A stretch of 64,000 nucleotides of DNA. Origin: Candidatus Brocadiia bacterium. GTDB taxonomy: Bacteria > Planctomycetota > Brocadiia > CAIUPP01. The position numbers and the translations under genes are program-made. Position 1 is the stretch's first letter; every line of letters starts with the position of its first letter. Shown piece after piece: positions 3,407 through 55,260 of this stretch. Under the pieces are notes generated by a model. The model worked only from the letters and a program-made list of their open reading frames with translations, did no database searches and was not told the DNA's origin. The DNA lies in the NCBI GenBank assembly GCA_050015075.1, contig JBEKCB010000013.1, positions 1 to 64,000 on the forward strand, written 5' to 3'.

Positions 3407-3430
3407 CGAATGCCGAGGGGCGATCGCCGA

Positions 3431-5038
3431 ATGCCGATGGATGAGAATCGAATGGCCCTGAAAGATTCCAAGCGCGCGCGGGTGATGGCGCGGTCGAAGA
3501 AGCTCGGACACTGCATCTGCGACCCGCGAAAGGCCTGCCCCTGCAACCTGCTGATTGAAAAGGACGTCTGCCTTTGCGCCGGCGAGCGGCTGCCGGCGGA
3601 ACGGCGCGGGACTGCCGCGCCGAACGCGGCGCTGACGAAGCTGGTCAAGAACGCCGGCTGCGCCTCGAAAATTCCCGCCGCGGAACTCGCCAAAATCCTG
3701 GCACGGCTGCCGGCGGTCAGCGATCCGCGCCTGCTCGTCGGGCTCGGCACCGCCGACGACGCGGGCGTCTTCCAGGTCAGCCCGGATCTCTGCCTGGTGC
3801 AGACGGTGGATGTCTTCGCTCCGTGCGTGGACGATCCGTACCTCTTCGGCCAGATCGCGGCGGCGAATTCGCTGAGCGACGTGTACGCGATGGGCGGCGC
3901 GCCGCTGACGGCGCTCTCGATCGTCGGCTGGCCGATCCACACGCTGAGCGACGAGTGGCTCGTCCGCATGCTCGAAGGCGGCATGGACAAGCTGCGCGAG
4001 GCGGGCGTCATCCTCGTCGGCGGGCACAGCATCAACGACGAGGAGATCAAGTTCGGGTTCGCGGTGACCGGCACCATCCGGCCGGACGCCATCGTGGCGA
4101 ACTCCGGCGCGCGGCCGGGCGACGCGATGATCCTCACCAAGCCGGTCGGCACGGGCATCATTTCCTTCGCCGCGCAGATCGGGCGCGCCTCCGCCGAAGC
4201 GCTGCGCGCCGCCGGCGAGAGCATGGCCGCGCTCAACCGCGGCGCCGCGCAGGTCATGTGCCGCGCCGGCGCGCATGCGGGGACCGATGTCACCGGCTTC
4301 GGCCTGCTCGGCCATCTCTGGCAGGTCGCGCGCGAGAGCGGCGTGACGGCCGAACTCTGGTGGGACGCGGTCCAGGCGCTGCCGGGAGCCCTCGAATGCG
4401 CCCGGCAGGGCATCGTCTCCGGCGCGGCCGAGCGCAACCGCGAGTTCGCCGGCCCGGCGGTGACCGTCGCCGCCGGCGTGCCGGAATACGCAATGGACCT
4501 GCTCTACGACGCGCAGACTTCCGGCGGGCTGCTGATGTTCGTGCCGGAGCAGGCCGCCGGGCGGACCGTCGCCGAACTGCGCGCCGAAGGCTGTTCTTCC
4601 GCGGCCGTCGTCGGCCGCATTCTGGGGAAATCAAAAGGAGGGATCATCGTGGCGAAAAAACGCGACTCCGCACCCCGCACTCCGCCGCCCGACGCGGCTC
4701 GCGGCGCTGAGCCTGTCGAAGGACACGCCGCAGCCGAAAAGTGCTGCTCGACGGAATCAGCGCCTGCCGGCTCCGCCGGCTCGCCGCAGGAGGCGTTCCA
4801 GGATTTCATGGGAAAGGCCTTCGCGCCCGGCGCGCTCGACGCGGTGCAGAAGGAGATCATGACCATCGCGCTCTCGGTCGCCGTGCAGTGCGAGCCATGC
4901 CTGAAGATCCACCTGGAGAAGGCGCGCAGCATGGGCATCAGCCCCGACGAAATCCGCGAAGCCGCCTGGATGGGCATCGTGTTCGGCGGCTGCAAGGCGA
5001 TGATGTTCTGGAAGGAGAAGGGGCCGAAGGACGGATGA
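3431..5038 (+). CDS. selD: Selenide, water dikinase SelD with an N-terminal Cys-rich extension and a C-terminal CMD/AhpD-like domain
   Basis: SelD motifs LTKLVKNAGCASK (Cys form), DDAGV, VQTVD, FGQIAAANSLSDVYAMGG, GGHS, TDVTGFGLLGH and DAQTSGGLL. N-terminal HCICDPRKACPC..CLC. C-terminal GALDAVQKEIMTIALSVAVQCEPCLKIH. Confidence 0.95.
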   Translation: MPMDENRMALKDSKRARVMARSKKLGHCICDPRKACPCNLLIEKDVCLCAGERLPAERRGTAAPNAALTKLVKNAGCASKIPAAELAKILARLPAVSDPRLLVGLGTADDAGVFQVSPDLCLVQTVDVFAPCVDDPYLFGQIAAANSLSDVYAMGGAPLTALSIVGWPIHTLSDEWLVRMLEGGMDKLREAGVILVGGHSINDEEIKFGFAVTGTIRPDAIVANSGARPGDAMILTKPVGTGIISFAAQIGRASAEALRAAGESMAALNRGAAQVMCRAGAHAGTDVTGFGLLGHLWQVARESGVTAELWWDAVQALPGALECARQGIVSGAAERNREFAGPAVTVAAGVPEYAMDLLYDAQTSGGLLMFVPEQAAGRTVAELRAEGCSSAAVVGRILGKSKGGIIVAKKRDSAPRTPPPDAARGAEPVEGHAAAEKCCSTESAPAGSAGSPQEAFQDFMGKAFAPGALDAVQKEIMTIALSVAVQCEPCLKIHLEKARSMGISPDEIREAAWMGIVFGGCKAMMFWKEKGPKDG

Positions 5039-5095
5039 CGGGCGATGGCTGAGTGCTGATCGTTGACCGGCAACCGCCGGAGAAAGGAGCGGAAC

Positions 5096-5875
5096 ATGGC
5101 CCTCGGAAAAAATCACGTGCTGGTCATCGTCGCCATCGCGGGCATTATGGCGCTCACACTGGCCGGGGCTGGCCTGTTCAGCGGGAAGCAGGGGCCCGGC
5201 TATCTCCGGATCAACGTCTCAGACAAGAGCGCCGCCTACCTTGAATTTGAAGGCGCGGCCCTGCGCGCCGCGGCGAGCATGGAGGGACTGAAGACCGCGG
5301 AGCCGCTGCCGCTGCGTGCGCTGAATTTCCGGGCGGCGCAGTCCAGGGAGTTCACACTCCCGATTCCGGCCGATCAGCTTCCCGCAGGCGTCAGCGCCGT
5401 CAAGGGGATCTTCACGCGGACGGGGAGCAATGTCTCGGGCCAGATGGGAATCTGCCGGACGGACGCGCAGAAAGTCGTCTGGCAATGCGACGCAGGGATC
5501 TTGTCGGGGACCGGCGATCATGCGGAGGCGGCGCCGGCCATCCAGTTGCCAAGCCTGGAGACGCTTGCGCTGGTTGTCACGGGCGCGCCCTCGAATGGGA
5601 AACTGGGCATCGGTGTGCGGCTCGCGGCCGGCGACAACCCGGTGACCGGCGTGCTCAAGGATGGAAAGCCCGTGCCGGTCCAGGTCAGCGTGACGGACGC
5701 CGCCGGCAAAGAGGTGGCCGCGCGGAAAGGGCCGTTGACTGATTTCGGGTTCAGTTGAGGCGGCCCCTGCTGCTCCGTCGGAGTGGCGAAAGGCACGTAC
5801 ACGGTTTCCGCGACTCTCGACGCGGGGCCGTTCGGGTCCGCCGTGAAAGGCCAGGCGAAGGTCGTCGTGCCGTAG
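5096..5875 (+). CDS. Putative exported selenoprotein, paralogue 1 (Sec at TGA 5756-5758; U-G-G-P-C-C), 259 aa
   Basis: AAGGAG RBS and an N-terminal hydrophobic segment. The in-frame TGA is followed by 38 codons (GGPCCSVGVAKGTYTVSATLDAGPFGSAVKGQAKVVVP-TAG) that are conserved in the three downstream paralogues. SECIS-like hairpin at 5769-5787. Confidence 0.88.
5769..5787 (+). promoter_or_regulatory. Bacterial SECIS-like hairpin (paralogue 1)
   Basis: GCTGCTCC-GTC-GGAGTGGC: 8-bp stem with two G-U wobbles, starting 11 nt after the UGA. Confidence 0.8.
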
Positions 5876-5889
5876 CCGCCCGCTGGCTC

Positions 5890-5937
5890 GTAGTGTGCCC
5901 GCCAGGGCATACGAAGCAGCGCCTGACGGCGCCACTA
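5890..5937. repeat. GTAG-type REP-like element (second copy at 34283-34330)
   Basis: GTAGTGTGCCCGCCAGGGCATACGAAGCAGCGCCTGACGGCGCCACTA is near-identical to 34283-34330. Both copies sit just after stop codons. Confidence 0.75.
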
Positions 5938-5970
5938 TAAGCTGCCCGTGAGATTCCGCGGCCCGCTCCA

Positions 5971-6141
5971 CTAGATACGTATCGCACCTAGTCGAGTGCC
6001 GGGTCTGGCGGTCGCCTTTCGTGAGCCGGTTGCGCTGCGCCGGATGAGGGACTAGATACGTATCGTATCTAGCGGCGGCTGAAGCAAGCGAGCGGTTGCA
6101 GGATCACCCGCGGCGCAACGCTAGTTACGTATCGTATCTAG
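5971..6141. repeat. Three 21-bp palindromes, consensus CTAGATACG-TAT-CGTATCTAG
   Basis: Copies at 5971-5991, 6052-6072 and 6121-6141, separated by unrelated 60- and 48-bp gaps. Confidence 0.85.
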
Positions 6142-6206
6142 TGGCAGGCTGACGGATGAGGGGGCGCGCTTCGCGGGGCGGGCGCGGCGCATTCTGAAGT
6201 TACTCC

Positions 6207-6235
6207 TTGACAGACGCGACTTTGTGCCATACGCT
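6207..6235 (+). promoter_or_regulatory. sigma70-type promoter of paralogue 2
   Basis: TTGACA-N17-TACGCT. Confidence 0.6.
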
Positions 6236-6278
6236 TACGCTTGTGAGCCGAACAGGGCATTTGGCGAAGGGTGCCCGC

Positions 6279-7091
6279 ATGTCTCTATGCGGCCGCAGGG
6301 CGCGGGCCGTCGCGATGGCGGGCGCCATGGCGCTGGCGTGGCTGTGGGCCGGCACCAGCTCTGCGCAGACCTCGCAGAAGCCGGCCTTCGCGCGGCTCGC
6401 CGTGTCGGAGAATAGCGTCGTTTACATTCAGATCGAAGGCGGCGAACTCCGCGCGGCGATGAGCGCCGAGGGCTTGCAGACCGCCGCGCCGGTCAGGATG
6501 ACCGCGGAGTCCGCCTACGTAATCGCGTCCCCCGAATTCACGCTGCCCATTCCGGCCGAGCGACTGCCCGCCGGCGTCACGGCGATCAAAGCAACCCTGA
6601 CGCTGATGCAGATTCCGCCATCCACATTGCGGTCCGAGTGGCCGCCCCGTATTAGCGGCAGGTTCAGGATCTTCCGGACCGATGACCGGAAAGTGGAATG
6701 GCAATACGCGTCGTCCGGCGAGGTGCTGACAGGGGCGAACGCGGAGGAAGCGCCGTCCATCATGCTGCCCAACCTGGACAAAGTGAACGCCCGCCTGGCG
6801 GCCGCAGTGAGTGGAGGAACGCTGAGAGTGAACCTGGGGGTCAACGCCGGCGGCGCGCTCCTGGCCGGCGTGCGCAAGGCCGGCCACATGGTCCAGGTGA
6901 AGATGGTCGTGACGGACGCCTCCGGCGCCGTAATCGCCTCGAAAGTCGGGACGCTGTCCGACTTCGGGTTCAGTTGAGGCGGCCCGTGCTACTCCGTTGG
7001 AGTAGCCAAAGGGACTTACACCTGCACCGCGACGATGGATGTCGGGACCGGTTCGCCGCTGAAGGCAACGGCGACGGCTGCGGCTCCGTAA
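6279..7091 (+). CDS. Putative exported selenoprotein, paralogue 2 (Sec at TGA 6975-6977; U-G-G-P-C-Y), 270 aa
   Basis: Signal peptide ending ...LAWLWAGTSSA. After the TGA the frame continues GGPCYSVGVAKGTYTCTATMDVGTGSPLKATATAAAP-TAA. Hairpin GCTACTCC-GTT-GGAGTAGC at 6988-7006. Confidence 0.88.
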
Positions 7092-7185
7092 CGAGAGATT
7101 GCGCGGGTCCGGCGCCTGCGCTTGGGCGGCAGCGGCGTCATAAGTACGAGCCTGTCGCGCGAGGTGCGGAAGAGGAGGCGAGGCT

Positions 7186-7968
7186 ATGTTGCGATCTTGC
7201 GGCAAGAGGCTGATCGTCGCAGTGGCGGGCGTTGCGGCGCTGATGTGGGTCGGGGCCGGCTGCACCTCCGCGCAGGTCTCGCAGGGGCCGGCGTTCGCCC
7301 GGCTCGCCCTGTCGGAGAAGAGCGCCGTCTGCATCCGGATTCAAGGCGGCGAAGTCCGCGCGGCGATGAGCGCCGAGGGCTTGCAGACCGCCGAGCCGGT
7401 CAAAACGCACACCGAATTCACGCTGCCGATTCCGGCCGATCAACTGCCCGCCGGCGTCACGGCGATCAAAGCGAACCTGGCGCTGATGCAGATTCAGACG
7501 GCCGCGTCGGCCGCGCTGGCGCCCTACATTAACGGCACGTTCAGGATCTTCCGGGCGGATGACCAGAAGGCGGAATGGCAATTTGTGTCGGCCGGCGGCG
7601 GCCTGGCCGGGGCGAACGCGGAGAAAGCTCCATCCATCAAGCTGCCTGACCCGGACAAGTTGGACGCCAGCCTTTCGGCCACGGTCACTGGAGAAAAGCT
7701 GGCCGTCGGCCTTCGGGTCACTGCCGGCGGCGCGACCTTGACCGACGTGCGCAAGGACGGGCACCTGGCGGTGGTGAAGATGGTCGTGGCGGACGCCTCC
7801 GGCGTCGAGATAGCCTCAAAAGTCGGCACGCTGGCCGATTTCGGGTTCAGTTGAGGCGGGCCCTGCTACTCCGTGGGAGTAGCTAAAGGGACTTACACCT
7901 GCACCGCCACGCTGGATGTCGGGGCCGGTTCGCCGCTGAAGGCAACGGCGACGGCCGTCGTCCCCTAG
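7186..7968 (+). CDS. Putative lipo-selenoprotein, paralogue 3 (Sec at TGA 7852-7854), 260 aa
   Basis: GAGGAGG RBS and lipobox-like VGAGC. After the TGA the frame continues GGPCYSVGVAKGTYTCTATLDVGAGSPLKATATAVVP-TAG. Hairpin GCTACTCC-GTG-GGAGTAGC at 7865-7883. Confidence 0.88.
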
Positions 7969-8059
7969 CGAGGGATTCTTCGGTCCGGGCTTGTGTTTCG
8001 GCGGCGGCGGCGCTATAAACAAGGACGTGTCGCGCGAGGCGCGAAAGAGGAGGTGGGTT

Positions 8060-8827
8060 ATGTTGAGGGTTTGCAGCAGGGGGCTGGCCGTCGCGGCGTG
8101 CGCCGCGGCGCTGGCTTTGATCGGGGCCGGCTGCGCGGGAGTGCAGACCGCGCAGGCGCCGGCGTTTGCCCGGATCCCCCTGTCGGAGAACTGCGCCGTC
8201 AGCATTCAGATTCAAGGCGGCGAAGTCCGCGCGGCGATGAGCGACCAGGGAGTGCAGGCCGCCGCGCCGGTCAAGGCGGGCTCCGAATTCGCGCTGCCCG
8301 TTCCGGCCGATCAACTTCCCGCCGGCGTCACGGCAATCACCGCGAGCCTGTTGCTGACGCAGTATCAGTCGGGCGAAAACGCCGCGGTTGTCGGCCAGCT
8401 CACGGTCTTCCGGACCGATGACCAGAAGGCGGAATGGAAGTACGTGTCACAGCTCAGCGTCCCGGCCAGGGTGAACTGGGATCACGCGCAGTGCATCAAG
8501 TTGCCCGATCCGGCTGATGTGAAGGCCAGCCTCGAAGCCACGCCCGCCACAGGAAAACTTTCCATCGGCCTCAGGCTCACCCTCTATGGCGCCGCGATGG
8601 CCGACGTTCGCAAGAACGGCAAGCCGGTCCAGGTGAAGATGGTCGTGGCGGACGCCTCCGGAGCCGAGATCGCTTCAAAAGTCGGGACGCTGGCCGACTT
8701 CGGGTTCAGTTGAAACGGCCCCTGCTACTCCGTGAGAGTAGCTAAAGGAACTTATACATGCACGGCCACGGTGGAAGTCGGCGCCGGTTCCCCGCTCAAG
8801 GCGGAAAAGACGGTCACTGTGCCGTAA
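8060..8827 (+). CDS. Putative lipo-selenoprotein, paralogue 4 (Sec at TGA 8711-8713; U-N-G-P-C), 255 aa
   Basis: GAGGAGG RBS and lipobox-like IGAGC. After the TGA the frame continues NGPCYSVRVAKGTYTCTATVEVGAGSPLKAEKTVTVP-TAA. Hairpin GCTACTC-CGTGA-GAGTAGC at 8724-8742. Own promoter TTGTGT-N17-TATAAA at 7991-8019. Confidence 0.88.
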
Positions 8828-8853: not shown

Positions 8854-8890
8854 AAGGGCGCTGGCTGATTCGGCCGGCGCCCTTTTGTTT
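8854..8890 (+). terminator. Intrinsic terminator after paralogue 4
   Basis: AAGGGCGCTGGCTG-ATT-CGGCCGGCGCCCTT followed by TTGTTT. It lies just after the extended stop codon (TAA 8827), not after the TGA. Confidence 0.75.
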
Positions 8891-8900
8891 CTGGCGTGTA

Positions 8901-8991
8901 TCGTACTCGTCCTCGTCCTCGGCCGCACGAAACGGCCGTTCGAGGACGAGGACGAGGACGAGGACGAAAACGGCGACGAGCACGAGGACGA
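8901..8991. repeat. (CTCGTC)n/(GACGAG)n palindromic repeat (second copy at 12080-12166)
   Basis: Inverted hexamer arrays that produce spurious LVLVLV/EDEDED ORFs. Confidence 0.8.
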
Positions 8992-8998
8992 CTGGCGC

Positions 8999-9096
8999 GG
9001 GAGCGGATGGGTCCTGGTGGATCTTGCTCCGCTTCAAACGGAGTGCGGGGCCCTGATAAGGTCCTAGGTGGGTTCGATTCCCACACGCTCCCGCCA
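8999..9096 (+). tRNA. selC: tRNA-Sec (anticodon UCA)
   Basis: 8-position acceptor GGGAGCGG/ACGCTCCC followed by GCCA. 6-bp D stem with a 4-nt TGGT loop. Anticodon arm CTCCG-CTTCAAA-CGGAG with TCA at 9034-9036. Long variable arm and T arm GTGGG-TTCGATT-CCCAC. Confidence 0.97.
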
Positions 9097-9159
9097 ACAT
9101 TAATGACGATGGACGATAGACGAGGGACGATGGACGATGGAAAAAACCGGACAGCGCCA

Positions 9160-9828
9160 ATGGGAGAAACTGCCTTGAGCCGCGACAAGATCCTCGAAGA
9201 ACTCGCCCGAACGGTCGTGGCGATGGACGAAGCCGGGGCCGTGGCCGCCGCGCACAAGGCGCTCGCGGGCGGCGTGGACCCGTACGTGGCGATCAACGAC
9301 GGGCTCGCCGTCGGCATGCGCGAGGTCGGGCGGCTCTACGACACGGGCGAATACTTCGTCCCGGAAATCCTCATCTGCTCCGACGCGATGAACGCCGGGA
9401 TCGCCGTCCTCAAGCCGCACATCCGCCGCGCGCCGGGCCGCGAGCCGGTCACCGTCATCCTCGGCGTCATCGAGGGCGACATCCACGACATCGGCAAGAA
9501 CATCGTCAAGATCATGCTCGACGCCTCCGGCTTCCAGGTCGTGGATCTCGGCCGCGACGTGAGCGCCGAGCGCTTCGTCCAGGCCGCGCGCGAGGCCAAG
9601 CGCGGGCTCGTCGGCCTCTCCACGCTCATGTCCACCACCATGGAGAACATGGGCAAGGTCGTCAGCGGCCTCTCCGACGCCGGGCTGCGGAAGGAGTTCC
9701 GCGTGATGCTCGGCGGCGCGCCCTGCTCGGAGGCCTTCGCGCGCGAGATCGGCGCGGACGGGTTCGGGCGGAACGCCAGGGAGGCGGTCGAACTCGCGGA
9801 ACGGTTGTCCGGGAAATTGGGTGATTAG
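9160..9828 (+). CDS. Methyltransferase-cognate corrinoid (B12-binding) protein, MtaC/MtbC-like
   Basis: Cap domain GLAVGMREVGRLYDTGEYFVPE and B12 motif EGDIHDIGKNIV..DLGRDV..GLSTLM..MLGGAP. The start is ATG 9160 or TTG 9175; the longer ORF-track start overlaps the tRNA. Confidence 0.93.
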   Translation: MGETALSRDKILEELARTVVAMDEAGAVAAAHKALAGGVDPYVAINDGLAVGMREVGRLYDTGEYFVPEILICSDAMNAGIAVLKPHIRRAPGREPVTVILGVIEGDIHDIGKNIVKIMLDASGFQVVDLGRDVSAERFVQAAREAKRGLVGLSTLMSTTMENMGKVVSGLSDAGLRKEFRVMLGGAPCSEAFAREIGADGFGRNAREAVELAERLSGKLGD

Positions 9829-9928
9829 GAGATTGGGAGATTAGGTGATTAGGAAATTAGGAGCTTGGGTGATTGAGTTTGGCGATTTTCGCCACCCAAT
9901 TTCCCAATTTCCTAATCTCCCAATCTCC
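9811..9928. repeat. Inverted octamer array (TTGGGAGA/TCTCCCAA type; similar element at 54441-54551)
   Basis: Tandem ~8-bp units followed by their reverse complements. Confidence 0.75.
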
Positions 9929-9953
9929 AGTTGTGAATCAGCAAGGAACTGAA

Positions 9954-10988
9954 ATGCCCAGTGACAAGATGTCGCCCGCCGAACGCTTCACCGCCTTCCT
10001 CAGCGGCAAGCCGATGGACCGCTTCCTGTGCGTGCCGCTGATCCTCAACCATGCCGCGCGCGTCCTCGGCGTGAAGGTCGGCCGGTACAACCGCGACGGC
10101 CGGCTCATGGGCGAATGCCATGCGGCGGCGTACCGGCGCTACGGGCACGACATGATCGCGATCTTCTCGGATACCGCGATCGTCGCCGAGGCGATGGGCA
10201 CGGAACTTTACTATCCGGAGGACGACGTCCCGCGCGTCGAGCGGCCCGCGCTCGCCGACCCGAAGGACCGCAGCCGGCTCGTCACCGCCGACTGGGCCGA
10301 CCGGGGCAAGCTGCCGGTTTTCTACGAGGCGATCCGCGTCGCGGCCGAGGCGCTCCACGGCGAAGCGCCCATCGGCTGCTGCGTCCCGGCGCCCTTCACC
10401 ACCGCCGCCTGCCTGCGTGGCACCGACCAGCTCGCGCGCGACCTCTACCGGAACCCGGCGCTCGCGCATGAACTGCTCGCCCTCGCGCTCGAAGCGGCGA
10501 AGCAGTTCGCCGGCCGCATCATGGATTCGGGCGGCGTGCCGGTGGTCGTGGACCCGGTCGCCACCGGCAGCGTCCTCGGCCGGCGGCAGTTCGAGGAGTT
10601 CGCGCTGCCGTACCTGAAGCCGCTTCACGCGCACGTCGCCGCGCGCGGGTTCCCGGTGGTCCTGCACATCTGCGGACAGACCGCGCGCACGCTCGATCCC
10701 ATGGCCGAATCCGGCGCGGCGCTGCTGAGCCTGGACGACATCTCGATGGCCGAGGCGCGCGACCGCGTCGGCGGCCGCGTGGCGCTCATGGGCAACGTCC
10801 GGCCCGCGCAGACGCTCCTGAAGGGCAAGCCGGAAGACGTCCTCCGCGAGGTCCGCGACCTGTGCGACATCGGCCGCAAATGCCAGGCCGGTTTCATCCT
10901 CGGCAGCGGCTGCGAAGTCCCCATCGCCAGCCCGCCGGAGAACATAGACGCCATGATGGCCGGCGTCAGAGAATACGGGAGAATGTAG
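9954..10988 (+). CDS. Uroporphyrinogen decarboxylase-fold methyltransferase (MtaA/CmuA family)
   Basis: Zn-binding HICG motif, C-terminal GFILGSGCEVPIASPPENI, GNVRP and APFTTA. Adjacent to the corrinoid protein. Confidence 0.88.
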   Translation: MPSDKMSPAERFTAFLSGKPMDRFLCVPLILNHAARVLGVKVGRYNRDGRLMGECHAAAYRRYGHDMIAIFSDTAIVAEAMGTELYYPEDDVPRVERPALADPKDRSRLVTADWADRGKLPVFYEAIRVAAEALHGEAPIGCCVPAPFTTAACLRGTDQLARDLYRNPALAHELLALALEAAKQFAGRIMDSGGVPVVVDPVATGSVLGRRQFEEFALPYLKPLHAHVAARGFPVVLHICGQTARTLDPMAESGAALLSLDDISMAEARDRVGGRVALMGNVRPAQTLLKGKPEDVLREVRDLCDIGRKCQAGFILGSGCEVPIASPPENIDAMMAGVREYGRM

Positions 10989-11040: not shown

Positions 11041-12075
11041 ATGTCCTTCACAGCGCGCAGCCGGCTTACCGGCGCCCTTCGCCGCGAACCGGTGGACCGC
11101 CCGCCGGTCATCTGCCCCGGCGGCATGATGACCATGGCCACCGCATCCGCCATGCGCCGAGTCGGCCGCGCCTGGCCGGCGGCGCACTCCGACGCGCGCG
11201 CGATGGCCGAGATCGTCCTCGCCACGCGCGACGAGACCGGGCTCGAATGCCTCGCCGTCCCGTTCTGCATGACCGTCGAGGCCGAAGCGCTCGGCTGCAC
11301 CGTGGACATGGGCAGCGCAACCGTGCTCCCGCACGTCGCGGTCGAATGCATCCGCGATCCGGCGGAGGTCGGCGGCCTGCCGGAGTTCAACCCGGAGCGC
11401 TCCGGCCGCGCGCCGGTGGTGCTCGAGGCGATCGAGCGGCTGAAGAGCGCCTGCGCCGGCGCCCCGGTCCTCGGCGGCGTGCTCGGCCCGGTCACGCTCG
11501 CGGCGATGATCATGGATGCCGGCCTCTTCCTGCGCCTGACGCGGCGCGACCCGGCCGCCGCCGAACAATTCATCGCCGCCCTGGAGCCGGTCGTGGTCCG
11601 GTTCGCGCTCGCGCAGCACGCCGCCGGAGCCGACTGCGTCACCGTGGCCGAGCCTTCGGCCACCGGCGAAGTGCTCGGCGGAAAGCACTTCGAGAAGCTC
11701 GCCGCGCCCGCGCTCGTCCGCGTCCTCCGCGCCTTGCGCGACGGCGGGGCATCGCCTATACTGCATATATGCGGCGACCTGCGGCCGATCCTGCCGCAGG
11801 TGGCGCTCATCGCGCGCAAGCTCGACGCGCCGCTGGCGCTCAGCGTGGACGCGATGGTCAGCGGGCGCGACTTGCAGGCGGCGCTGCCGGAGGTCGTGCG
11901 CGTCGGGAACGTGGACGCGCTCCTGCTGCAGCGCGAAGATGTCGCAACGGTTGAGCGCGTGGCGCGCGCGGCGGCGCTCGATTTCGACATCCTCTCGCCC
12001 GCCTGCGGCCTGGTCCCCACGACGCCGGCGGAAAACCTGCGGGCGATGGTCCGCGCGGCGCAGCGGCAATTATAA
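11041..12075 (+). CDS. Methylcobamide methyltransferase (MtaA/MtbA family)
   Basis: DRPPVICPGGMM, VPFCMTVEAEALGC, LHICG and SPACGL. Confidence 0.9.
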   Translation: MSFTARSRLTGALRREPVDRPPVICPGGMMTMATASAMRRVGRAWPAAHSDARAMAEIVLATRDETGLECLAVPFCMTVEAEALGCTVDMGSATVLPHVAVECIRDPAEVGGLPEFNPERSGRAPVVLEAIERLKSACAGAPVLGGVLGPVTLAAMIMDAGLFLRLTRRDPAAAEQFIAALEPVVVRFALAQHAAGADCVTVAEPSATGEVLGGKHFEKLAAPALVRVLRALRDGGASPILHICGDLRPILPQVALIARKLDAPLALSVDAMVSGRDLQAALPEVVRVGNVDALLLQREDVATVERVARAAALDFDILSPACGLVPTTPAENLRAMVRAAQRQL

Positions 12076-12212
12076 GCGCATCGTACTCGTCCTCGTCGTC
12101 GTCCTCGTCCTCGGCCGTTCAGAACGGCGATTCGAGGACGAGGACGACGACGAGGACGATTACGATAGGTTGCGATTAACGCGCGTCGTATCCTCTGATG
12201 AGAGCCTTGTGA

Positions 12213-13115
12213 ATGAAGCCAAGACCTGAAATCGGAATATGGGGTCGGCGCTTCCCGACGCAGATCGTCTCGCTGATCGCCTTCAACGGTTACTTCTGGC
12301 GCGGGCCGGGAAAGTGGTTCTGCCTGCCGGTCCTGAACTGCTACGCCTGCCCGGTCGGAACGGTCGCCTGCCCGATCGGTAGCCTGACGGCGTTCGCGCT
12401 GGCGCGGAGGATCCCGTTTTACGCCCTGGGACTCCTCGGTGTCATCGGAGTGGCCGTCGGCCGCGCGTTCTGCGGATGGGCCTGCCCGTTCGGGCTTTTC
12501 CAGGACCTGCTGTACCGCATCCGCTCGTTCAAGTTCCGGCTGCCGCGCGCGGCGAACGCGCTGAAGTACGCGCTGCTGGTCGTGCTGGCGCTGGGGCTGC
12601 CGCTGATTATGGGCGGCGGAAAGCGGACCGGCTCCGAGGACCGGATCACCGGCGAGAAGACCGGCGCGCTGGACTATTGCTCGCTGGTCTGCCCGGCCGG
12701 GACGCTCGAAGGCGGCGTGCCGGTCCTGGCGGCGAGCGCCTCGGTGCGCGCGCAAGCCTCGTGGCGAACCTGGAGCAAGATCGGTCTCGCGGTGGGCATT
12801 CTCGGCCTGACGGTCGTCGCGCGCAGGAGCTTCTGCCGCGCGCTCTGTCCGCTCGGCGCGCTGATGGCGCTCACCTCGCGCGTCTCGATGATGCAGTTGC
12901 ACACCGAGGACAAGCTCTGCACGCGCTGCATGCGCTGCGTCAAAGTCTGTCCCACGTACGCGCGGCATCTGCCGTTCAAGCAGTTCAAGACCGAGGCCAC
13001 CGTCGAATGCGTGATGTGCCTCGACTGCGTCCGCAACTGCCCGGAGAAAGGCGCGCTCTCCGCGCGGATGGGCGGGAAATCTTTCTCCGTCAGCGAAGGG
13101 AGGACCCGTGAGTAG
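12213..13115 (+). CDS. Membrane 4Fe-4S binding protein (NapH/MauN-like polyferredoxin)
   Basis: LNCYACP, GRAFCGWACPFG, FCRALCPLG, two CxxCxxCxxxCP motifs and several TM helices. Confidence 0.9.
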   Translation: MKPRPEIGIWGRRFPTQIVSLIAFNGYFWRGPGKWFCLPVLNCYACPVGTVACPIGSLTAFALARRIPFYALGLLGVIGVAVGRAFCGWACPFGLFQDLLYRIRSFKFRLPRAANALKYALLVVLALGLPLIMGGGKRTGSEDRITGEKTGALDYCSLVCPAGTLEGGVPVLAASASVRAQASWRTWSKIGLAVGILGLTVVARRSFCRALCPLGALMALTSRVSMMQLHTEDKLCTRCMRCVKVCPTYARHLPFKQFKTEATVECVMCLDCVRNCPEKGALSARMGGKSFSVSEGRTRE

Positions 13116-13254
13116 AAGAGACTGGATCGTCGCCGCGGCGCTGACGCTGCTGTTCGCGGCCCTGCTGACGTACGGCCTGAGCCAGGGCGACGCGGGCTAC
13201 GTGCGCCAGAACGCCTCAGAGAATTTCTGCTTCTCCTGAGCGCTCGGCGAATGA
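13108..13254 (+). CDS. Small membrane protein with C-x-x-U (CD1871A-like CXXC family; Sec at TGA 13237-13239), 48 aa
   Basis: GGAGG RBS and a GTG start overlapping the upstream stop. Reads MSRRDWIVAAALTLLFAALLTYGLSQGDAGYVRQNASENFCFS-U-ALGE. Perfect hairpin GACCGCGC-GTG-GCGCGGTC at 13253-13271. Absent from the ORF track. Confidence 0.75.
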
Positions 13255-13386
13255 CCGCGCGTGGCGCGGTCGAACGACGGTAAGTTTTGCCGCAAAGAGG
13301 CGCAAGAAGCGCAAGGATCATTGAAATTCCGTGCCTCTTGCGCCTCTTTGCGGCTAAGCGGTTCTTCTGTGCCGGAGGCAAGCTGA

Positions 13387-14790
13387 ATGTCGGACGATTC
13401 CGCGCTCCTGCGCCAGTTGCCGCGCGTGGACGACTTGCTCGTCCATCCGCGAATGGCCGCGGTTCCGGCGGCGCATGCGCTGGCTTTGAAGGCCGCGCGC
13501 GAGGCGGTGGCCGAGACGCGCGCGCGGCTTCTGGCGGGCGAAAGCGCGGTGGACGCGAGCGCCGACGCCGTCGCGGCGCGCGCCGCGGAGATCCTCGAAC
13601 GCGCCGCCGCGCGCAGCCTGCGCCGCGCCGTCAACGCCACCGGCGTCCTGCTCCACACCAACCTCGGCCGCGCGCCGCTCTCGGACGCCGCGCAGCGGGC
13701 GCTCGCCGACGTCGCCGGCGGGTTCTGCAACGTGCAGGCGGACCTCGGCTCCGGCCGCCGCTCCGAGCGCGAGGACCACGTGCAGGGCCTCTTCCAGGCG
13801 CTCACCGGCGCGGAGGCGGCGCTCGTCGTCAACAACAACGCCGCCGCGACCGTGCTGGCGCTCAACACGCTCGCCGCCGGGCGCGAGGTGATCGTCTCGC
13901 GCGGCGAGATGGTCGAGATCGGCGGCGCGTTCCGCATCCCGGAAATCCTCAAGCTCGCCGGCTGCCGGCTCGTCGAGGTCGGCTGCACCAACCGCACTCA
14001 CCTGCGCGATTACGAGCGCGCCCTCACGCCCGAGACCGCGCTGATCCTCTCGGTCCACCAGAGCAACTATCGCATCGTCGGGTTCGCCGAGCAGACGCCC
14101 GTGCGCGAGCTGGCCGAGCTGGCGCACGCCCGCGGGATTCCCTGCGCGCACGACCTCGGCAGCGGCGCGCTGCTCGACCTGCGCGCCTACGGCCTGCCGC
14201 ACGAGCCGACCGCGCCGGAGAGCCTGGCCGCCGGCGCGGACGTGACGCTCTTCAGCGGCGACAAGCTGCTCGGCGGACCGCAGTGCGGCATCCTCCTCGG
14301 CAAAAAGGCGCCGCTGGCGGCGATGCACAAGAACCCGTTCTACCGCGCGTTCCGCGTCGGCAAGCTGACCCTGGCCGCGCTCGAGGCGACGCTGCGTCTC
14401 TTCCTCGAGCCGGAGACGCTGCTCGAGAAGCACCGGCTTATGTCTCTGCTGACGGCCCCGCTCGAAGGAATCCGCCGCCGCGCCGAGTCGCTCGCGCAGG
14501 AAATCGCCGCCTCGTGCGCCGGCTGGCTGGCGGCCGAGGCGCAGGCGGGCGAATCGGAAATCGGCGGCGGCTCGCTCGCCGGATATCCGATCCCGACCGT
14601 CGTGGTCCGCCTGAGCCCGAAGGGCCTCTCACCCGACGACTTGGCCGCGCGCCTGCGCCAGTCCGACCCGCCGATCTTCACCCGCGTCCACGAAGGCTGC
14701 GTGCTCCTCGACGTGCGGACCATGCTTCCCGGCGAAGAGCGGCTCATCGTCGAGGCGCTGAAGCGGATCGGGGCTAAGGTCCAGCAATGA
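13387..14790 (+). CDS. selA: L-seryl-tRNA(Sec) selenium transferase
   Basis: LRQLPRVD, NATGVLLHTNLGRAPL, VVNNNAAA, SRGEMVEIGGAFRIP, EVGCTNRT, DLGSG and the PLP lysine motif FSGDKLLGGPQ. Confidence 0.98.
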   Translation: MSDDSALLRQLPRVDDLLVHPRMAAVPAAHALALKAAREAVAETRARLLAGESAVDASADAVAARAAEILERAAARSLRRAVNATGVLLHTNLGRAPLSDAAQRALADVAGGFCNVQADLGSGRRSEREDHVQGLFQALTGAEAALVVNNNAAATVLALNTLAAGREVIVSRGEMVEIGGAFRIPEILKLAGCRLVEVGCTNRTHLRDYERALTPETALILSVHQSNYRIVGFAEQTPVRELAELAHARGIPCAHDLGSGALLDLRAYGLPHEPTAPESLAAGADVTLFSGDKLLGGPQCGILLGKKAPLAAMHKNPFYRAFRVGKLTLAALEATLRLFLEPETLLEKHRLMSLLTAPLEGIRRRAESLAQEIAASCAGWLAAEAQAGESEIGGGSLAGYPIPTVVVRLSPKGLSPDDLAARLRQSDPPIFTRVHEGCVLLDVRTMLPGEERLIVEALKRIGAKVQQ

Positions 14791-15234: not shown

Positions 15235-17145
15235 TTGGATATTCCTCCGCGCCACATCATCTTCGGCACCGCCGGGCACGTGGACCATGGGAAGTCCATG
15301 CTGGTCCTGGCGCTGACCGGGACCGATCCGGACCGGCTGGCCGAGGAGAAGGCGCGCGAGATGACGATTGATCTCGGCTTCGCTTTCCTCCCGCTGCCCG
15401 GGATCGCCGGCGCCGTCGCGATCGTGGACGTGCCCGGGCACGAGATGTTCCTGCGCAACATGGTGGCGGGCGCGACCGGGATTGACGCGGCGATGCTCGT
15501 GATCGCGTGCGACGAAGGGGTGATGCCGCAGACCGTCGAACACCTCGACGTCTTGCGCTGCCTGCGCATCTCCGAAGGCGTCATCGTCCTGACCAAGGCC
15601 GACAAATCGCCGGACCTGATCCCGGCGGTGACCGAGGAGGCGCGCGAGCTGGTGCGCGGGACGTTCCTGGAGAAGGCGCGGGCCATCCCGGTCTCGTCGG
15701 TGACCGGCGAAGGGCTGCCTGCGCTCAAGGAAGAGCTGGCGCGGATCGCCGCGCGCGTGCAGGCGCGCTCGGCCGAGGGGATCTTCCGCCTGCCGATTGA
15801 CCGCGTCTTCACGCTCAAGGGCGTCGGCACCGTCGTCACCGGCACGGTGATCTCCGGCTCGCTGAAGACCGGCGAGACGGTCGCCTGCCTGCCGCAGAAT
15901 TCGGCGCTGCGCGTGCGCGGGCTCCAGGTGCACAACGAGGCGGCGGCGGAGGTCTTCGCCGGCCAGCGCGCGGCGATCAACTTGGCGGACGCGTCGAAGG
16001 AGGACCTGGAGCGCGGCAATGTCCTCGCCGCGCCGGGCATGCTGGCGCCGACGCTGATGGCCGACGTGCGGCTGGAGCTTTCGCTCCGGTCGCCGAAGCC
16101 GCTGGCGCAGCGCGCGCGGGTGCGCATCCATCACGGGACCAGCGAGCTGATGGCGCGCGTGGTGCTGCTCGACCGGGAGTCGCTGCCGGCCGGCGAGTCG
16201 GCGCTGGTGCAGTTGCGTTTCGAGTCGCCGCTGGTCGCAGCCGCCGGCGACCCGTTCGTCGTCCGCTCGTATTCGCCGATGTTCGTCATCGGCGGCGGCA
16301 GCGTCGTGGACCCGCATCCGCCCAAGCGCCGGAAAGCCGCCGGCGCGGAGGACGTGGCGAAGCGCGAGAGTTCACCGGTCGCCGATGTGATCCTTGACGC
16401 GCTTGACCGCGCCGGCGCGCGCGGGGTGGAGTTCGCCCGGCTCCGGATCCATTGCGGGATCGGCGACGACGCGCTCCGGTCCGCGCTGGCCGGGATGAAA
16501 ACGGACGCGCTCGCCGCCGACGGCCGCCGCGATGTCTGGTTCAGCGCCGGCGCGCTCCGCGAGATGCAGGCGGCGATCACCGCGCGGCTGGCGCGCCTGC
16601 ACGCCGAGGAGCCGCTGCGCCCGTTCGCCGCGCTCAACCAGGTCTCCGCCGGCGCCGCGCCCACGCCGGAGTCGCGCGAGTGCTTCCGCCTGGCGCTCGA
16701 CGGACTGCGCGACCGCGGCGAAGTGATCGCCGCCGGCGAGCGGCTGCGCCTGGCGACTCACCAGCCGCAGTGGGTCGGCCGCTACGCGGCGGTTCGCGAG
16801 AAGCTGCTGGCGCAGTCCCGCGAGAGCGGCCTGGCCGTGCCGGCCGTCGCCGAATGGGCGCCACGAGTCGGGCTGTCCGAGCCGGACTGCCGGCGCTCGC
16901 TCGACGCCCTGGCCGAGGCGGGCGAATTAGTCCTGCTCGCCCCCGGCATTTATGTCCACCCCGAGTGTTTCAGCGGCGCGCGCGACCGGGTGAAGGAATT
17001 CCTGGCGAAGAACGGCCGAATGAATATCGCGCAGGCGCGCGATCTGCTCAGCGCCTCGCGCAAGTACCTGCTCCCGTTCCTCGAAGAACTGGACCGGCAG
17101 CGCGTCACCGCGCGGCAGGGCGACTTCCGGGTTCCCGCTTCTTGA
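15235..17145 (+). CDS. selB: Selenocysteine-specific translation elongation factor
   Basis: GTAGHVDHGKS, EEKAREMTIDLGFA, DVPGHE, NMVAGATG and TKAD. C-terminal winged helix SRKYLLPFLEELD..T.RQGD.R. Confidence 0.98.
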   Translation: MDIPPRHIIFGTAGHVDHGKSMLVLALTGTDPDRLAEEKAREMTIDLGFAFLPLPGIAGAVAIVDVPGHEMFLRNMVAGATGIDAAMLVIACDEGVMPQTVEHLDVLRCLRISEGVIVLTKADKSPDLIPAVTEEARELVRGTFLEKARAIPVSSVTGEGLPALKEELARIAARVQARSAEGIFRLPIDRVFTLKGVGTVVTGTVISGSLKTGETVACLPQNSALRVRGLQVHNEAAAEVFAGQRAAINLADASKEDLERGNVLAAPGMLAPTLMADVRLELSLRSPKPLAQRARVRIHHGTSELMARVVLLDRESLPAGESALVQLRFESPLVAAAGDPFVVRSYSPMFVIGGGSVVDPHPPKRRKAAGAEDVAKRESSPVADVILDALDRAGARGVEFARLRIHCGIGDDALRSALAGMKTDALAADGRRDVWFSAGALREMQAAITARLARLHAEEPLRPFAALNQVSAGAAPTPESRECFRLALDGLRDRGEVIAAGERLRLATHQPQWVGRYAAVREKLLAQSRESGLAVPAVAEWAPRVGLSEPDCRRSLDALAEAGELVLLAPGIYVHPECFSGARDRVKEFLAKNGRMNIAQARDLLSASRKYLLPFLEELDRQRVTARQGDFRVPAS

Positions 17146-22581: not shown

Positions 22582-23685
22582 TTACTTTCTTCCGCTTTCT
22601 TTCCGCACCGCTTCGCAGACTGTGCGGACCTGCTCTTCGGTCAATTCGGCGAACAGCGGCAGCGACAGGGTTTCCCTGGCGGCGCGCTCGGCCTCGGGGA
22701 AATCGCCCTCTTTATATCCCAGGTCGGCGTGCGCTTTGACGAGATGGATCGGGATCGGGTAGTGGATTCCGGAGTCCACGCCGTCGTTGTGGAGCGCCTC
22801 CTTGAGCGCGTCGCGGCGCTGCGCGCGGACGGCGTAGACGTGATAGACATGCCGCGCGTACGGCATTTCGACGGGCGGCTCGACGCCGGAGCCGGCGAGG
22901 AGTTTTCCATACTGCGCGGCGCGCGCGCGGCGGGCCTCGGTCCACGCGGGCAGGTGGCGCAGCTTGACGCGCAGGACGGCGCCCTGGAAACCTTCCATGC
23001 GGTAATTGAAGCCTTTGAGGACGTGCTGGTACTTCGCCTCCGCGCCCCAGTCGCGGAGCATGCGCAGCGTGCGGAGGAATTCCGGGTTGCCGGTGGTCAC
23101 CATGCCGGCCTCGCCGCACGCGCCCAGGTTCTTGCTGGGATAGAAACTGAAACAGCCGAGGTCGCCCAGGCTGCCGCAGCGGCGGCCTTTGTACTCGGCG
23201 CCGTGGGCCTGCGCGGCGTCCTCGATGACGGCCAGGCGGCGCTTGCGCGCGATGGCGAGGATCGGGTCCATGTCCGCGGGCTGGCCGTAGAGGTGCACGG
23301 GGATGATCGCCTTCGTGCGCGGCGTGATGGCGGCCTCCAGGCGCGCGGGATCCATCGTGTAAGTGCGCGGGTCAATGTCCACCAGCCGCGCGCGCGCGCC
23401 CGTATAGCCGATCGCCGCCACGGTGGCGACGAAGGTGAAGGGCACGGTGATGACCTCGTCGCCGGGCCCGACCCCGGCGGCGAGCAGCGCCAGGTGCAGC
23501 GCGCTGGTGCCGGAGTTGACCGCGACGCCGTGTTTGACAGAGCAGTACGCGGCGAATTCCTCCTCGAACGCGGCGACCTCGCTGCCGAGCGCGAACTGGC
23601 AGGAGTCGAGGACGCGGGCCAGCGCGGCGTCGAGTTCGGCGCGGATGGCCTGGTGCTGGAGCTTGAGGTTCACGAGCGGGATCAC
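22582..23685 (-). CDS. DegT/DnrJ/EryC1/StrS sugar aminotransferase (WbpE-like)
   Basis: NSGTSAL, PVHLYGQ, EDAAQAHGA and FSFYPSKNLG. Confidence 0.95.
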   Translation of the reverse strand: MIPLVNLKLQHQAIRAELDAALARVLDSCQFALGSEVAAFEEEFAAYCSVKHGVAVNSGTSALHLALLAAGVGPGDEVITVPFTFVATVAAIGYTGARARLVDIDPRTYTMDPARLEAAITPRTKAIIPVHLYGQPADMDPILAIARKRRLAVIEDAAQAHGAEYKGRRCGSLGDLGCFSFYPSKNLGACGEAGMVTTGNPEFLRTLRMLRDWGAEAKYQHVLKGFNYRMEGFQGAVLRVKLRHLPAWTEARRARAAQYGKLLAGSGVEPPVEMPYARHVYHVYAVRAQRRDALKEALHNDGVDSGIHYPIPIHLVKAHADLGYKEGDFPEAERAARETLSLPLFAELTEEQVRTVCEAVRKESGRK

Positions 23686-23688
23686 GCG

Positions 23689-24708
23689 TCAGGCCTCCTT
23701 CTGGATTTGGACGGGCCGGCCGCGGTCCTTGATGGACTCGGTGGCGGCCTCGAGGATGCGGACGATGCGCAGGCCGGCGTGGGCGTCGGTGAGCGGGCGC
23801 TCGCCGGTCTCGATGCAGCGGATGAAGTGCGCCGCCTCGGCGGCCAGCGCCTCCTTGCCGTCGAGCCGCGGCGCCCACATGTCGCCGGTGCGGTAGCCGA
23901 TGCGCACGCGATAGAGGTTCTCCGTGTCGTCGGCGACCGTCACGCCGCGGTCGTAGACTTTGACTTTTTCGCTCGGCTCGAGGTCGTCGTAGACGATCAT
24001 CTTCTTGCTGCCGCCGATCAGCGTCCGGCGCACCTTGACCGGCGCGAGCCAGTTGACGTGGATGTGCGCGATCAGGTCGGTCGGGAAGAAGAGCGTCAGG
24101 TACGCCACGTTCTCCGGCGCGCGCGCCACGTGGCTCATGCCCTCGGCCGACACCGCCGACGGCACTTGCCCGAGCACGTAGTCCATGATCGCCAGGTCGT
24201 GGACGGCCAGGTCCCAGATCACGTTCACGTCGTGCTGGAACAGGCCGAGATTGATACGGACGGAGTCGTAGTAATAGATGTCGCCGAGGTCGCCGGCCAC
24301 GACCAGGTCGCGGATTTTCCGCACCGCGCCGGTGAAGACGAACGTGTGGTCCACCATGAGGACGCGCTTGCAGCGGGCGGCCTCGTCAATGAGGCGACGG
24401 GCCTGGCCCGAAGTCGCCGTGAGCGGCTTCTCGACGAGCACGTGCTTGCCCGCCGCGAGCGCCTTCATGGCGAGGTCGAAGTGGGACGAGACGGAGGTCG
24501 CCACCGCGATGGCGTCCACGGCCGGGTTGGCCAGCAATTCGTCCACGTTCTGCGTCGTGCGGATCGCCGGGTAGCGCGCGCGCACCAGCGCCAGGCGTTC
24601 GGGGCGCAGGTCGCTCACGGCGACGACCTCCGAGCCGGGCGTCTCCGCGAAGTTCCGCACCAGGTTCGGTCCCCAATAGCCGTAACCGATCACCCCGACT
24701 CGAACCAT
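23689..24708 (-). CDS. Gfo/Idh/MocA oxidoreductase (sugar 3-dehydrogenase, WbpB/GnnA-like)
   Basis: GYGYWGPNL, VEKP and WDLAVHD. Confidence 0.92.
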   Translation of the reverse strand: MVRVGVIGYGYWGPNLVRNFAETPGSEVVAVSDLRPERLALVRARYPAIRTTQNVDELLANPAVDAIAVATSVSSHFDLAMKALAAGKHVLVEKPLTATSGQARRLIDEAARCKRVLMVDHTFVFTGAVRKIRDLVVAGDLGDIYYYDSVRINLGLFQHDVNVIWDLAVHDLAIMDYVLGQVPSAVSAEGMSHVARAPENVAYLTLFFPTDLIAHIHVNWLAPVKVRRTLIGGSKKMIVYDDLEPSEKVKVYDRGVTVADDTENLYRVRIGYRTGDMWAPRLDGKEALAAEAAHFIRCIETGERPLTDAHAGLRIVRILEAATESIKDRGRPVQIQKEA

Positions 24709-24847
24709 AACCGCCTCTCCTCAAATCCCTCATCTGTAAACGCAACGACGACTCTCACCACGACGACACGACGGGCACGACGTACGGAAAGGCAGATTAA
24801 CAATTCCAAGCTGTACGTCGTGCACGTTGTGTCGTCGTGGTGAAGAA

Positions 24848-34275: not shown

Positions 34276-34282
34276 GCCGCTG

Positions 34283-34330
34283 GTAGTGTGCCCGTCAGGG
34301 CATACGAATTAGCGCCTTACGGCGCCACGA
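34283..34330. repeat. GTAG-type REP-like element (copy of 5890-5937)
   Basis: GTAGTGTGCCCGTCAGGGCATACGAATTAGCGCCTTACGGCGCCACGA, between convergent genes. Confidence 0.75.
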
Positions 34331-35152: not shown

Positions 35153-35491
35153 AGGGATCTCCGGTTTTTGGCGATATCGCGCTTGAAGCAGGCAAGGGCC
35201 GAGTATAGGCGCGCCGCCGCCAAAATGCAACCGCGGCGGCCGCGCAGGCGGTCCGGGGAGTTGACACGGGCCGCGCCGGCGGGTATTTTTGGCCGTCGGC
35301 GGGAATATGGCGCGGAGCATAAGTCATGCTTCACCACGACGGCACGACGAGCACTACGTACGGATTAGAACCATTAATCTAACTTTCCGTACGTCGTGTT
35401 CGTCGCGCCGTCGTGGTAAAAGCGTGTGCTTCGTGGTGAGAGGATGAGGATGTTTTCGTTGAGGCCGCTGGTTCGCGGGAGGAGCGCCCCG

Positions 35492-54475: not shown

Positions 54476-54562
54476 GAGATTGGGAGATTGGGTCACGGAT
54501 AACCGCGTCACCCAATTTCCTGATTTCCCAATCTCCTAATCTCCCAGTTCCGAGGAAAGCGC

Positions 54563-55201: not shown

Positions 55202-55260
55202 CTTCAAAGGATTCGTTCTTGGTGTCTTGGTGCCTTGGTGGTTAAACTGGGCGCGGCAGC

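Follow-up and report, generated by a model that had tools for sequence, protein, structure and literature searches.

A Probable 48-Residue CXXU Membrane Selenoprotein Related to the CD1871A Family, Encoded Next to selA in a Candidatus Brocadiia Bacterium

Introduction

Here we consider a small open reading frame (ORF) in a 64,000-nt stretch of DNA from a Candidatus Brocadiia bacterium (GenBank contig JBEKCB010000013.1, positions 1 to 64,000; called the window below), which is located between a gene for a membrane 4Fe-4S protein and selA. We will argue that the ORF at 13108..13254 is a real gene in which an in-frame TGA is read as selenocysteine (Sec), and that it encodes a 48-residue single-helix membrane selenoprotein of a divergent, Sec-using subfamily of the CD1871A proteins. 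From the comparison of sequences we put the probability of this reading at roughly 80%, and the small ORF would then stand for a probable new selenoprotein family.

The CD1871A family is named after a gene of Clostridioides difficile, and the pair consisting of CD1871A and a 4Fe-4S gene is found in other Clostridia. The corresponding NCBIfam model, NF040920 (CD1871A family CXXC motif-containing protein), has 38 positions and a cut-off of 32 bits.

Results and Discussion

The small ORF starts with a GTG at 13108-13110, overlapping the end of the 4Fe-4S gene (stop TAG at 13113-13115) by 8 nt. The 43 codons before the first TGA encode MSRRDW, a hydrophobic stretch and then GLSQGDAGYVRQNASENFCFS, closing with ...QNASENFCFS. 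The tail after this TGA reads GCG CTC GGC GAA, which corresponds to ALGE, and is followed by a second TGA. An earlier reading, made from the letters of this DNA without database searches (the sequence-only reading), had described a GTG ORF across the 4Fe-4S stop with a hydrophobic helix and then ...NFCFS-TGA-ALGE-TGA, and this is exact when the DNA is read directly. The 8-bp GTG-loop hairpin that it placed behind the first TGA has coordinates that agree as well, the first base of the loop being the 22nd nucleotide past this TGA (21 nt between them). A second in-frame stop exactly four codons on is found for 38 of the 1,533 TGA triplets of the window (2.5%), and for one of 47 predicted gene stops.

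A word-indexed search gave 10 relatives of the small protein, and a profile search gave 42 proteins. With phmmer, run against 1.84 billion representatives, nine matches were obtained at E ≤ 0.001, and the seven that were retrieved are all family members; two long matches (P0017 and P0018, with several short stretches each) were taken for matches of hydrophobic stretches and left out. Altogether, this amounts to 44 distinct relatives with identities of 42-98%. In all 44, the protein closes with C-[FL]-[STA] followed by the stop; none extends further and none has a second Cys. Residues G23, V32, C41 and F42 are invariant in an alignment of 28 sequences, while the helix part varies yet stays hydrophobic, and the start codons are ATG or GTG. 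The database entries of the family are all 42-43 aa long.

Further evidence comes from the comparison with CD1871A. The annotated member from Peptoclostridium acidaminophilum (P0048, WP_168023683.1, 45 aa) scores 63.4 bits against NF040920, with Cys at positions 31 and 34, the end at 38, and the C-terminus ...NICLECIGIG. Weak matches to the same model are given by 8 of the 18 relatives scanned (12.1-28.4 bits; the best is P0047, with E 1.1e-6). In seven of these eight the last aligned residue is the invariant Cys, on position 31, and in P0041 the alignment goes one residue further, to 32, with the Cys likewise on 31. Since the stop follows two residues after this Cys, and since P0048 has its cysteines at 31 and 34, the family stop falls on position 34, which is that of the second Cys, and four positions of the model are left after it. 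Comparison by hhalign of the family profile with 43 CD1871A proteins gives 95.8% probability (E 7.9e-9, 42 columns) with U44 on the second Cys, and comparison with P0048 alone gives 62.9% (E 7.1e-5). That the TGA should come to lie on the second conserved Cys of CD1871A had been set beforehand as the check on the sequence-only reading, and both kinds of alignment place it there.

The length of the tail agrees too. In 119 of the 121 CD1871A proteins retrieved, the CXXC is followed by exactly four residues, and the small ORF likewise has four codons past the TGA. The small ORF has a C-terminal motif of this type with four residues behind it, C41-F-S-U44 followed by ALGE, only when its TGA is taken as Sec.

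We now turn to the hairpin that follows the TGA. Its stem begins 13 nt past the first TGA, the spacing from TGA to loop is 21 nt, and the hairpin alone has a folding energy of -15.3 kcal/mol. In the parts of a 2026 review covered here (PMC13188914), the model for the bacterial selenocysteine insertion sequence (bSECIS) has a loop of 3-9 nt, a stem of 4-16 bp, a spacing of 16-37 nt, a minimum free energy of at most -7.5 kcal/mol, and a G as the first or second base of the loop, with G or U as the usual next base. The hairpin at 13253-13271 satisfies these constraints as given there, in a model that is permissive in GC-rich DNA; the G+C content of the window is 66%. With a strict shape, defined as at least 8 bp (G-U allowed) and a 3-nt loop starting with GU, 16-37 nt past the TGA, only 6 of the 1,533 TGA triplets on both strands qualify. 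These are the in-frame TGAs at 5756, 6975 and 7852 of a set of paralogous genes upstream, the second TGA before the 5756 hairpin, the TGA of the small ORF, and an out-of-frame TGA at 18392.

The four paralogs provide a useful internal comparison. Past the TGA, a further 37-38 codons of their frames (...DFGFS-TGA-GGPCYSVGVAKGTYT...) are open and conserved, and the four genes are therefore good examples of Sec decoding within the same DNA. Their hairpins, which hardly differ from each other in sequence, have stems of 7-9 bp starting 13 nt from the T of the TGA, loops GUC, GUU, GUG and CGUGA, and a spacing of 18 nt, and all of them satisfy the bSECIS model as found in the covered parts of PMC13188914. 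The stem of the small ORF starts at +16, one codon farther than in the paralogs, and its apical C-GUG-G is identical to that of the third paralog. The paralogs have hydrophobic, signal-peptide-like N-termini and the in-frame TGA in the context ...DFGFS-U-[GN]GPC[YC]SV..., and a copy is present in L001, the locus introduced below. Having no Pfam or NCBIfam family, they may form an undescribed selenoprotein family of their own.

A scan of genomes for relatives of the small gene yielded one locus, in a metagenome-assembled genome of Ca. Brocadiia (L001). This close relative agrees with the window in gene order, tRNA-Sec included, and its small gene shares the TGA, the tail and the hairpin. The stretch that begins with the first TGA and closes with the hairpin is identical in the two (36/36 nt), compared to 122/129 nt in the ORF upstream of the TGA and 8/36 in the 36 nt past the hairpin, aligned without gaps. 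The constraint covers the tail and the hairpin and goes no further, which is modest evidence, coming from two close sequences only. This cessation of conservation past the hairpin indicates that the second TGA, 15 nt after the first, is the real stop, in line with what had been proposed from the sequence.

The positions of the features are collected in Table 1.

Table 1. Features of the small ORF, its partner gene and the surrounding selenium gene cluster in the window.
Feature	Position	Strand	Basis or remark
Shine-Dalgarno-like GGGAGG	13098..13103	+	4 nt upstream of the GTG start; identical in L001
Small ORF, putative 48-aa product: 43 sense codons, TGA (Sec44), ALGE, TGA stop	13108..13254	+	
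Hydrophobic stretch, residues 7-24 (IVAAALTLLFAALLTYGL), predicted single transmembrane helix	13126..13179	+	Sequence; hydrophobicity kept in relatives though sequence varies
In-frame TGA, probably read as selenocysteine (C41-F-S-U44)	13237..13239	+	On the second Cys of the CD1871A CXXC; TGA also in L001
Second TGA, taken as the true stop	13252..13254	+	The hairpin stem opens with its G and A
SECIS-type hairpin GACCGCGC-GUG-GCGCGGUC	13253..13271	+	8 bp (9 if U-G pair 13252/13272 counts); loop 13261-13263
Membrane 4Fe-4S protein, two Fer4_5 repeats and a 2x[4Fe-4S] ferredoxin domain, likely partner	12213..13115	+	Pfam Fer4_5, 72.5 bits
Long hairpin, 25-nt arms, outside the SECIS	13286..13357	+	-47.9 kcal/mol; z = -7.79; 0/200 shuffles
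selD fused to AhpD/CMD-like domain	3410..5038	+	TIGR00476, 362.8 bits; PF02627
Four paralogous genes with in-frame TGA	5063..5875, 6207..7091, 7186..7968, 7991..8827	+	
tRNA-Sec (selC)	8999..9096	+	ARAGORN; Rfam RF01852, 60.9 bits
Corrinoid protein gene	8896..9828		Pfam/NCBIfam
Two MtaA/URO-D-type methyltransferases	9873..10988 and 11041..12075		Pfam/NCBIfam
selA (selenocysteine synthase)	13387..14790	+	TIGR00474, 533 bits
selB (Sec-specific elongation factor; C-terminal winged-helix SECIS-binding domain)	15235..17145	+	TIGR00475, 344 bits; Pfam SelB-wing_3

A number of observations weigh against the assignment as a selenoprotein of this family. The most direct concern the strength of the homology. 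A scan with NF040920 at E ≤ 10 gave no match for the 48-aa readings of the window or of L001, none of the relatives scanned reaches the cut-off of 32 bits, and 10 of these 18 have no match at all. With a hidden Markov model (HMM) built from the 43 CD1871A proteins, the window protein scores 9.6 bits and its relatives 9.8-30. Reading through the TGA raises the score on this HMM by 1.7 bits, which come from the Cys alone; ALGE contributes 0, and 2 of 500 random tails do equally well. The replacement of the second Cys by Sec, as the sequence-only reading had it, is supported, but at this end of the protein the agreement with the family is limited to the Cys/Sec position and the length of the tail, there being no likeness between ALGE and the IGIG of the family. 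The CD1871A set was, moreover, collected by words shared with one member, and its uniform CLECIGIG ending is for this reason partly a selection effect. The searches for relatives found no form with Cys in place of the TGA within the subfamily, DNA is at hand for two members only, ca 95% identical to each other, while the remaining 42 are known as protein, and the adjacency of a Cys-type gene to a 4Fe-4S gene is known from one genome only.

The hairpin has its own weaknesses. The folding energy of the 44-nt stretch is ordinary (z = -0.79), with 36 of 200 dinucleotide shuffles folding at least as well. In addition, the TGA stop at 34273 of a GH20-type glycosidase gene (32368..34275) is followed by a hairpin of 8 bp with loop GUCA at spacing 18, 34273-34310 (+). 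Because ordinary stops such as this one qualify under looser rules, a hairpin alone proves nothing. We rejected TGA 34273 as a Sec codon: the extension runs antisense into a convergent gene, and we take the hairpin for an ordinary terminator-like one. The TGA at 23691, between 23689..24708 and 22582..23685, was also considered and dismissed, as it belongs to two ordinary overlapping genes (an oxidoreductase and an aminotransferase) and not to a selenoprotein. Rfam at gathering scores returned tRNA-Sec only, and at E ≤ 10 the region 13150-13400 gave no SECIS family, the matches there being of miRNA-precursor type, to the long hairpin only and far under gathering. Pfam and NCBIfam gave no match for the 43-aa form and nothing useful for the 48-aa reading.

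These points bear on what else the ORF could be. Translation could truly end at Ser43, in which case the protein would be a CD1871A relative that has lost its second Cys by a change from TGC or TGT to TGA, and the hairpin would be a SECIS-like element that binds SelB and controls selA-selB from their leader, or would act at the mRNA end or on mRNA stability. The hairpin indeed precedes the selA start by 116 nt, in the same arrangement in L001, and Thanbichler and Boeck reportedly described in 2002 an element of the E. coli selAB leader that is SECIS-like and binds SelB, which speaks for such a role. The ordinary hairpin energy, the dissimilar tail and the length of 42-43 aa of every database entry fit this option too. 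A remnant with a single Cys would, on the other hand, not be expected to hold C41, F42 and a stop at the Cys position across the 44 relatives, whose identities go down to 42%. The four-codon tail also matches the family length, and the spacing between TGA and hairpin is like that of the four other Sec-type sites of the window. The usual intergenic hairpins of this genome are long with repetitive arms, and one of them stands separately at 13286-13357. Set beside the E. coli element as it is said to be, the hairpin of the window is likewise of SelB type and upstream of selA, whereas it stands at SECIS distance behind an in-frame UGA in a conserved ORF, and has the separate long hairpin between it and selA. 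Regulation of selA is also compatible with Sec insertion, and the hairpin might have both roles. On balance, we regard termination at Ser43 as unlikely.

The two other options are considerably less attractive. It is very improbable that TGA-44 is read through without Sec, by a near-cognate Trp or Cys or by local recoding. This would give the same open four-codon tail, and nothing specific favors it, while the full Sec machinery adjoins, with tRNA-Sec, selA, selB and selD all in the window, and a hairpin of the SelB-type SECIS lies at the right distance. TGA is also the terminator of 29 of the 47 other predicted genes in the window, which shows that the code is standard and that TGA is not recoded throughout the genome. 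Least credible of all is that the small ORF is no gene and that the apparent family is non-coding sequence, conserved at the end of the 4Fe-4S operon, which gene callers reported as coding. The ORF is short, the 43-aa form is without a Pfam or NCBIfam match, and the ESM Atlas gave for it only MgrB look-alikes, with 0.80, which is at chance level. The substitutions among the relatives are nevertheless those of a protein, with the variable hydrophobic helix, the invariant C-terminal motif and the ATG or GTG starts; the ORF is preceded by a Shine-Dalgarno site and overlaps the end of the upstream gene by 8 nt, and its profile shows significant homology to an annotated protein family. A selenoprotein related to CD1871A remains the reading that we prefer.

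The membrane 4Fe-4S protein encoded directly upstream is the likely partner. It scores 66.8 bits against the NapH model, with a cut-off of 234, and 47 against NosR, with a cut-off of 1000, both far too low, and with NapH (the quinol dehydrogenase ferredoxin subunit) it has the domain type in common and no more. Its best tblastn match on plasmids is on the megaplasmid NZ_CP007453.1 of P. acidaminophilum (L002), to a protein that is 40% identical over the whole length, with every Cys motif kept. An annotated CD1871A gene (L002 4859..4996) runs 8 nt into the start of that 4Fe-4S gene. The overlap between the small gene and the 4Fe-4S gene is thus 8 nt in all three cases (the window, L001 and P. 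acidaminophilum), with the order reversed in the last. The statement of the sequence-only reading that CD1871A genes flank this 4Fe-4S family accordingly finds support in one genome, with the gene order there being the opposite one. The plasmid search with the CD1871A protein (tblastn) matched only the source record, and three other tblastn matches of the 4Fe-4S protein (H2, H30 and H39) cover the query in part and have no annotated CD1871A neighbor.

Since the gene overlap is conserved in two distant phyla, it suggests that the small protein binds the polyferredoxin. A prediction of the complex between the 43-aa form and the 4Fe-4S protein lends weak support, with a score of 0.37 compared to 0.01 for the best control. 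In the calibration, 116 of 157 solved complexes and 2 of 215 mismatched pairs attained the mark for such predictions; at scores of 0.60 or lower, only 18 of the 157 solved complexes attained it, along with both mismatches. The runs, made with custom alignments, agree in at least 78% of contacts, with a predicted local distance difference test (pLDDT) value of at least 67 for the partner.

Some observations on the surroundings of this pair can be added. In P. acidaminophilum (L002 2751..3341 and 4859..7107), the pair has a TlpA-family disulfide reductase and a gene of the nitroreductase family in its vicinity, and no corrinoid gene; only the pair itself is common to this neighborhood and that of the window. 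In the window, a corrinoid protein and two methylcobamide-type methyltransferases precede the 4Fe-4S gene, which loosely recalls corrinoid-dependent systems for metal or metalloid methylation. The 4Fe-4S protein also weakly matches the membrane-plus-ferredoxin part of the 'HgcAB-like fusion protein' (NF043039, E 4.4e-8, far under the cut-off). As to the selenium genes, the SelD of the window is of the Cys type, and its C-terminal AhpD/CMD-like domain carries a CxxC motif and has a weak resemblance to the AhpD domains of known selenoproteins (NF041537, NF041047).

A promoter scan of 12000-13600 gave nothing promoter-like, and a single terminator-like site, inside the 4Fe-4S gene and at chance level. 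Long intergenic hairpins of the kind present before selA are located at 8871-8997, 9828-9928, 12080-12166, 13286-13357, 24755-24843, 35330-35420, 54433-54549 and 55161-55240, and in L001 at ca 6190-6275. Their arms are short tandem repeats (TCGTCCTCG..., GGGAGATT..., CACCAAGG...) whose sequence differs from place to place. The counterpart of 13286-13357 in L001 is also a long hairpin, but it differs in sequence and resembles the one at 55161-55240 of the window. These elements could be terminators or a mobile class of hairpin.

Proposed Mechanism

On the basis of these results, the following sequence of events can be envisaged. Ribosomes that end the 4Fe-4S gene at UAG 13113-15 would restart at the overlapping GUG 13108 by translational coupling. 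SelB with Sec-tRNA(Sec), held by the GUG-loop hairpin 13253-13271, would then insert selenocysteine at UGA-44, after which the four further codons (ALGE) would be translated. The second UGA, which lies where the hairpin stem begins and has no SECIS at working distance, would terminate translation. The product would have C41-x-x-U44 near its C-terminus and be seated on the NapH-like polyferredoxin encoded upstream.

We infer Sec insertion, polyferredoxin binding and the chemistry alike. By analogy with cluster-adjacent disulfides, the CxxU would most likely be a redox-active (selenylsulfide) or metal-binding site that is fed by the Fe-S clusters of the polyferredoxin. The charges flanking the helix suggest a predicted topology with the N-terminus in and the C-terminus out. 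A bold reading would then place the CxxU on the outer face, as part of a transmembrane relay that takes electrons from Fe-S clusters in the cytoplasm to the four exported selenoproteins whose genes are close by. A relay to these proteins or to the corrinoid had been suggested as a possibility in the sequence-only reading. Besides providing the polyferredoxin with Sec, the small gene might also have a second function, in which UGA-44 and the SECIS before selA-selB act like a leader-peptide selenium sensor. The levels of SelA and SelB would then depend on whether the ribosome passes the UGA and melts the SelB-bound hairpin or halts before it, such that the capacity for Sec decoding is coupled to its own synthesis; this we consider quite doubtful.

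Relation to Known Families and Implications

The small ORF is like CD1871A (WP_168023683.1) in its size of ca 45 aa with an N-terminal hydrophobic helix, in the conserved region G-[DE]-x-A-x-V-x-x-x-A-x-N-x-C-x-x-[C/U] with four residues from there to the end, and in the 8-nt overlap with a Fer4_5-type membrane 4Fe-4S gene, as in P. acidaminophilum. It differs in having Sec (TGA) for the second Cys, with CFS-U-ALGE instead of CLEC-IGIG, in belonging to a subfamily that stays below the family cut-off and of which the window copy has no match, and in lying downstream of the 4Fe-4S gene and not upstream as in P. acidaminophilum. The hosts differ too, the small ORF being from Brocadiia (Planctomycetota) and CD1871A from Clostridia. 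The partner resembles the NapH, NosR and CcoG polyferredoxins in having two Fer4_5 repeats with CxxxCP motifs and a C-terminal two-cluster ferredoxin domain, and departs from them in its extra N-terminal Cys-rich motif, common to the P. acidaminophilum protein, and in being paired with a CXXC/CXXU micro-protein.

A position of Sec close to the C-terminus is also a feature of the UXX-star and SaoC families, which are typically truncated in databases, according to the covered parts of the sources (PMC13188914, Table 1; Haft and Gwadz preprint). Because Sec is within a few residues of the stop in these two families, as there described, and in the small ORF, the SECIS comes to lie on or past the stop codon. 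The small ORF, with its CxxU and four residues in a 48-aa membrane-anchored protein, is different from UXX-star and SaoC as these appear in the same parts, and is likened to them by the position of Sec alone, not by sequence. The names 'CD1871A' and 'NF040920' are absent from the literature searched, the main text of the 2026 review included and subscription journals lying outside the search. The review tabulates known and predicted prokaryotic selenoprotein families, and the parts of it covered contain no such family.

Taken together, the small ORF is probably a new Sec-using form of the known but uncharacterised CD1871A family, recognised in the way that is usual for such families. If true, this would add a selenoprotein family that the searched papers do not contain, and one whose 48 residues make it a very small selenoprotein. 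It would also be a case for annotation, all 44 of 44 database entries being cut at the Sec codon, and a natural example of a single message that decodes UGA as Sec and then, 15 nt on, as stop. The natural replacement of the second Cys by Sec would indicate that the CXXC of the family is reactive, as a redox or metal site, and not structural, and this would be the first functional hint for the pair of CD1871A and the 4Fe-4S gene.

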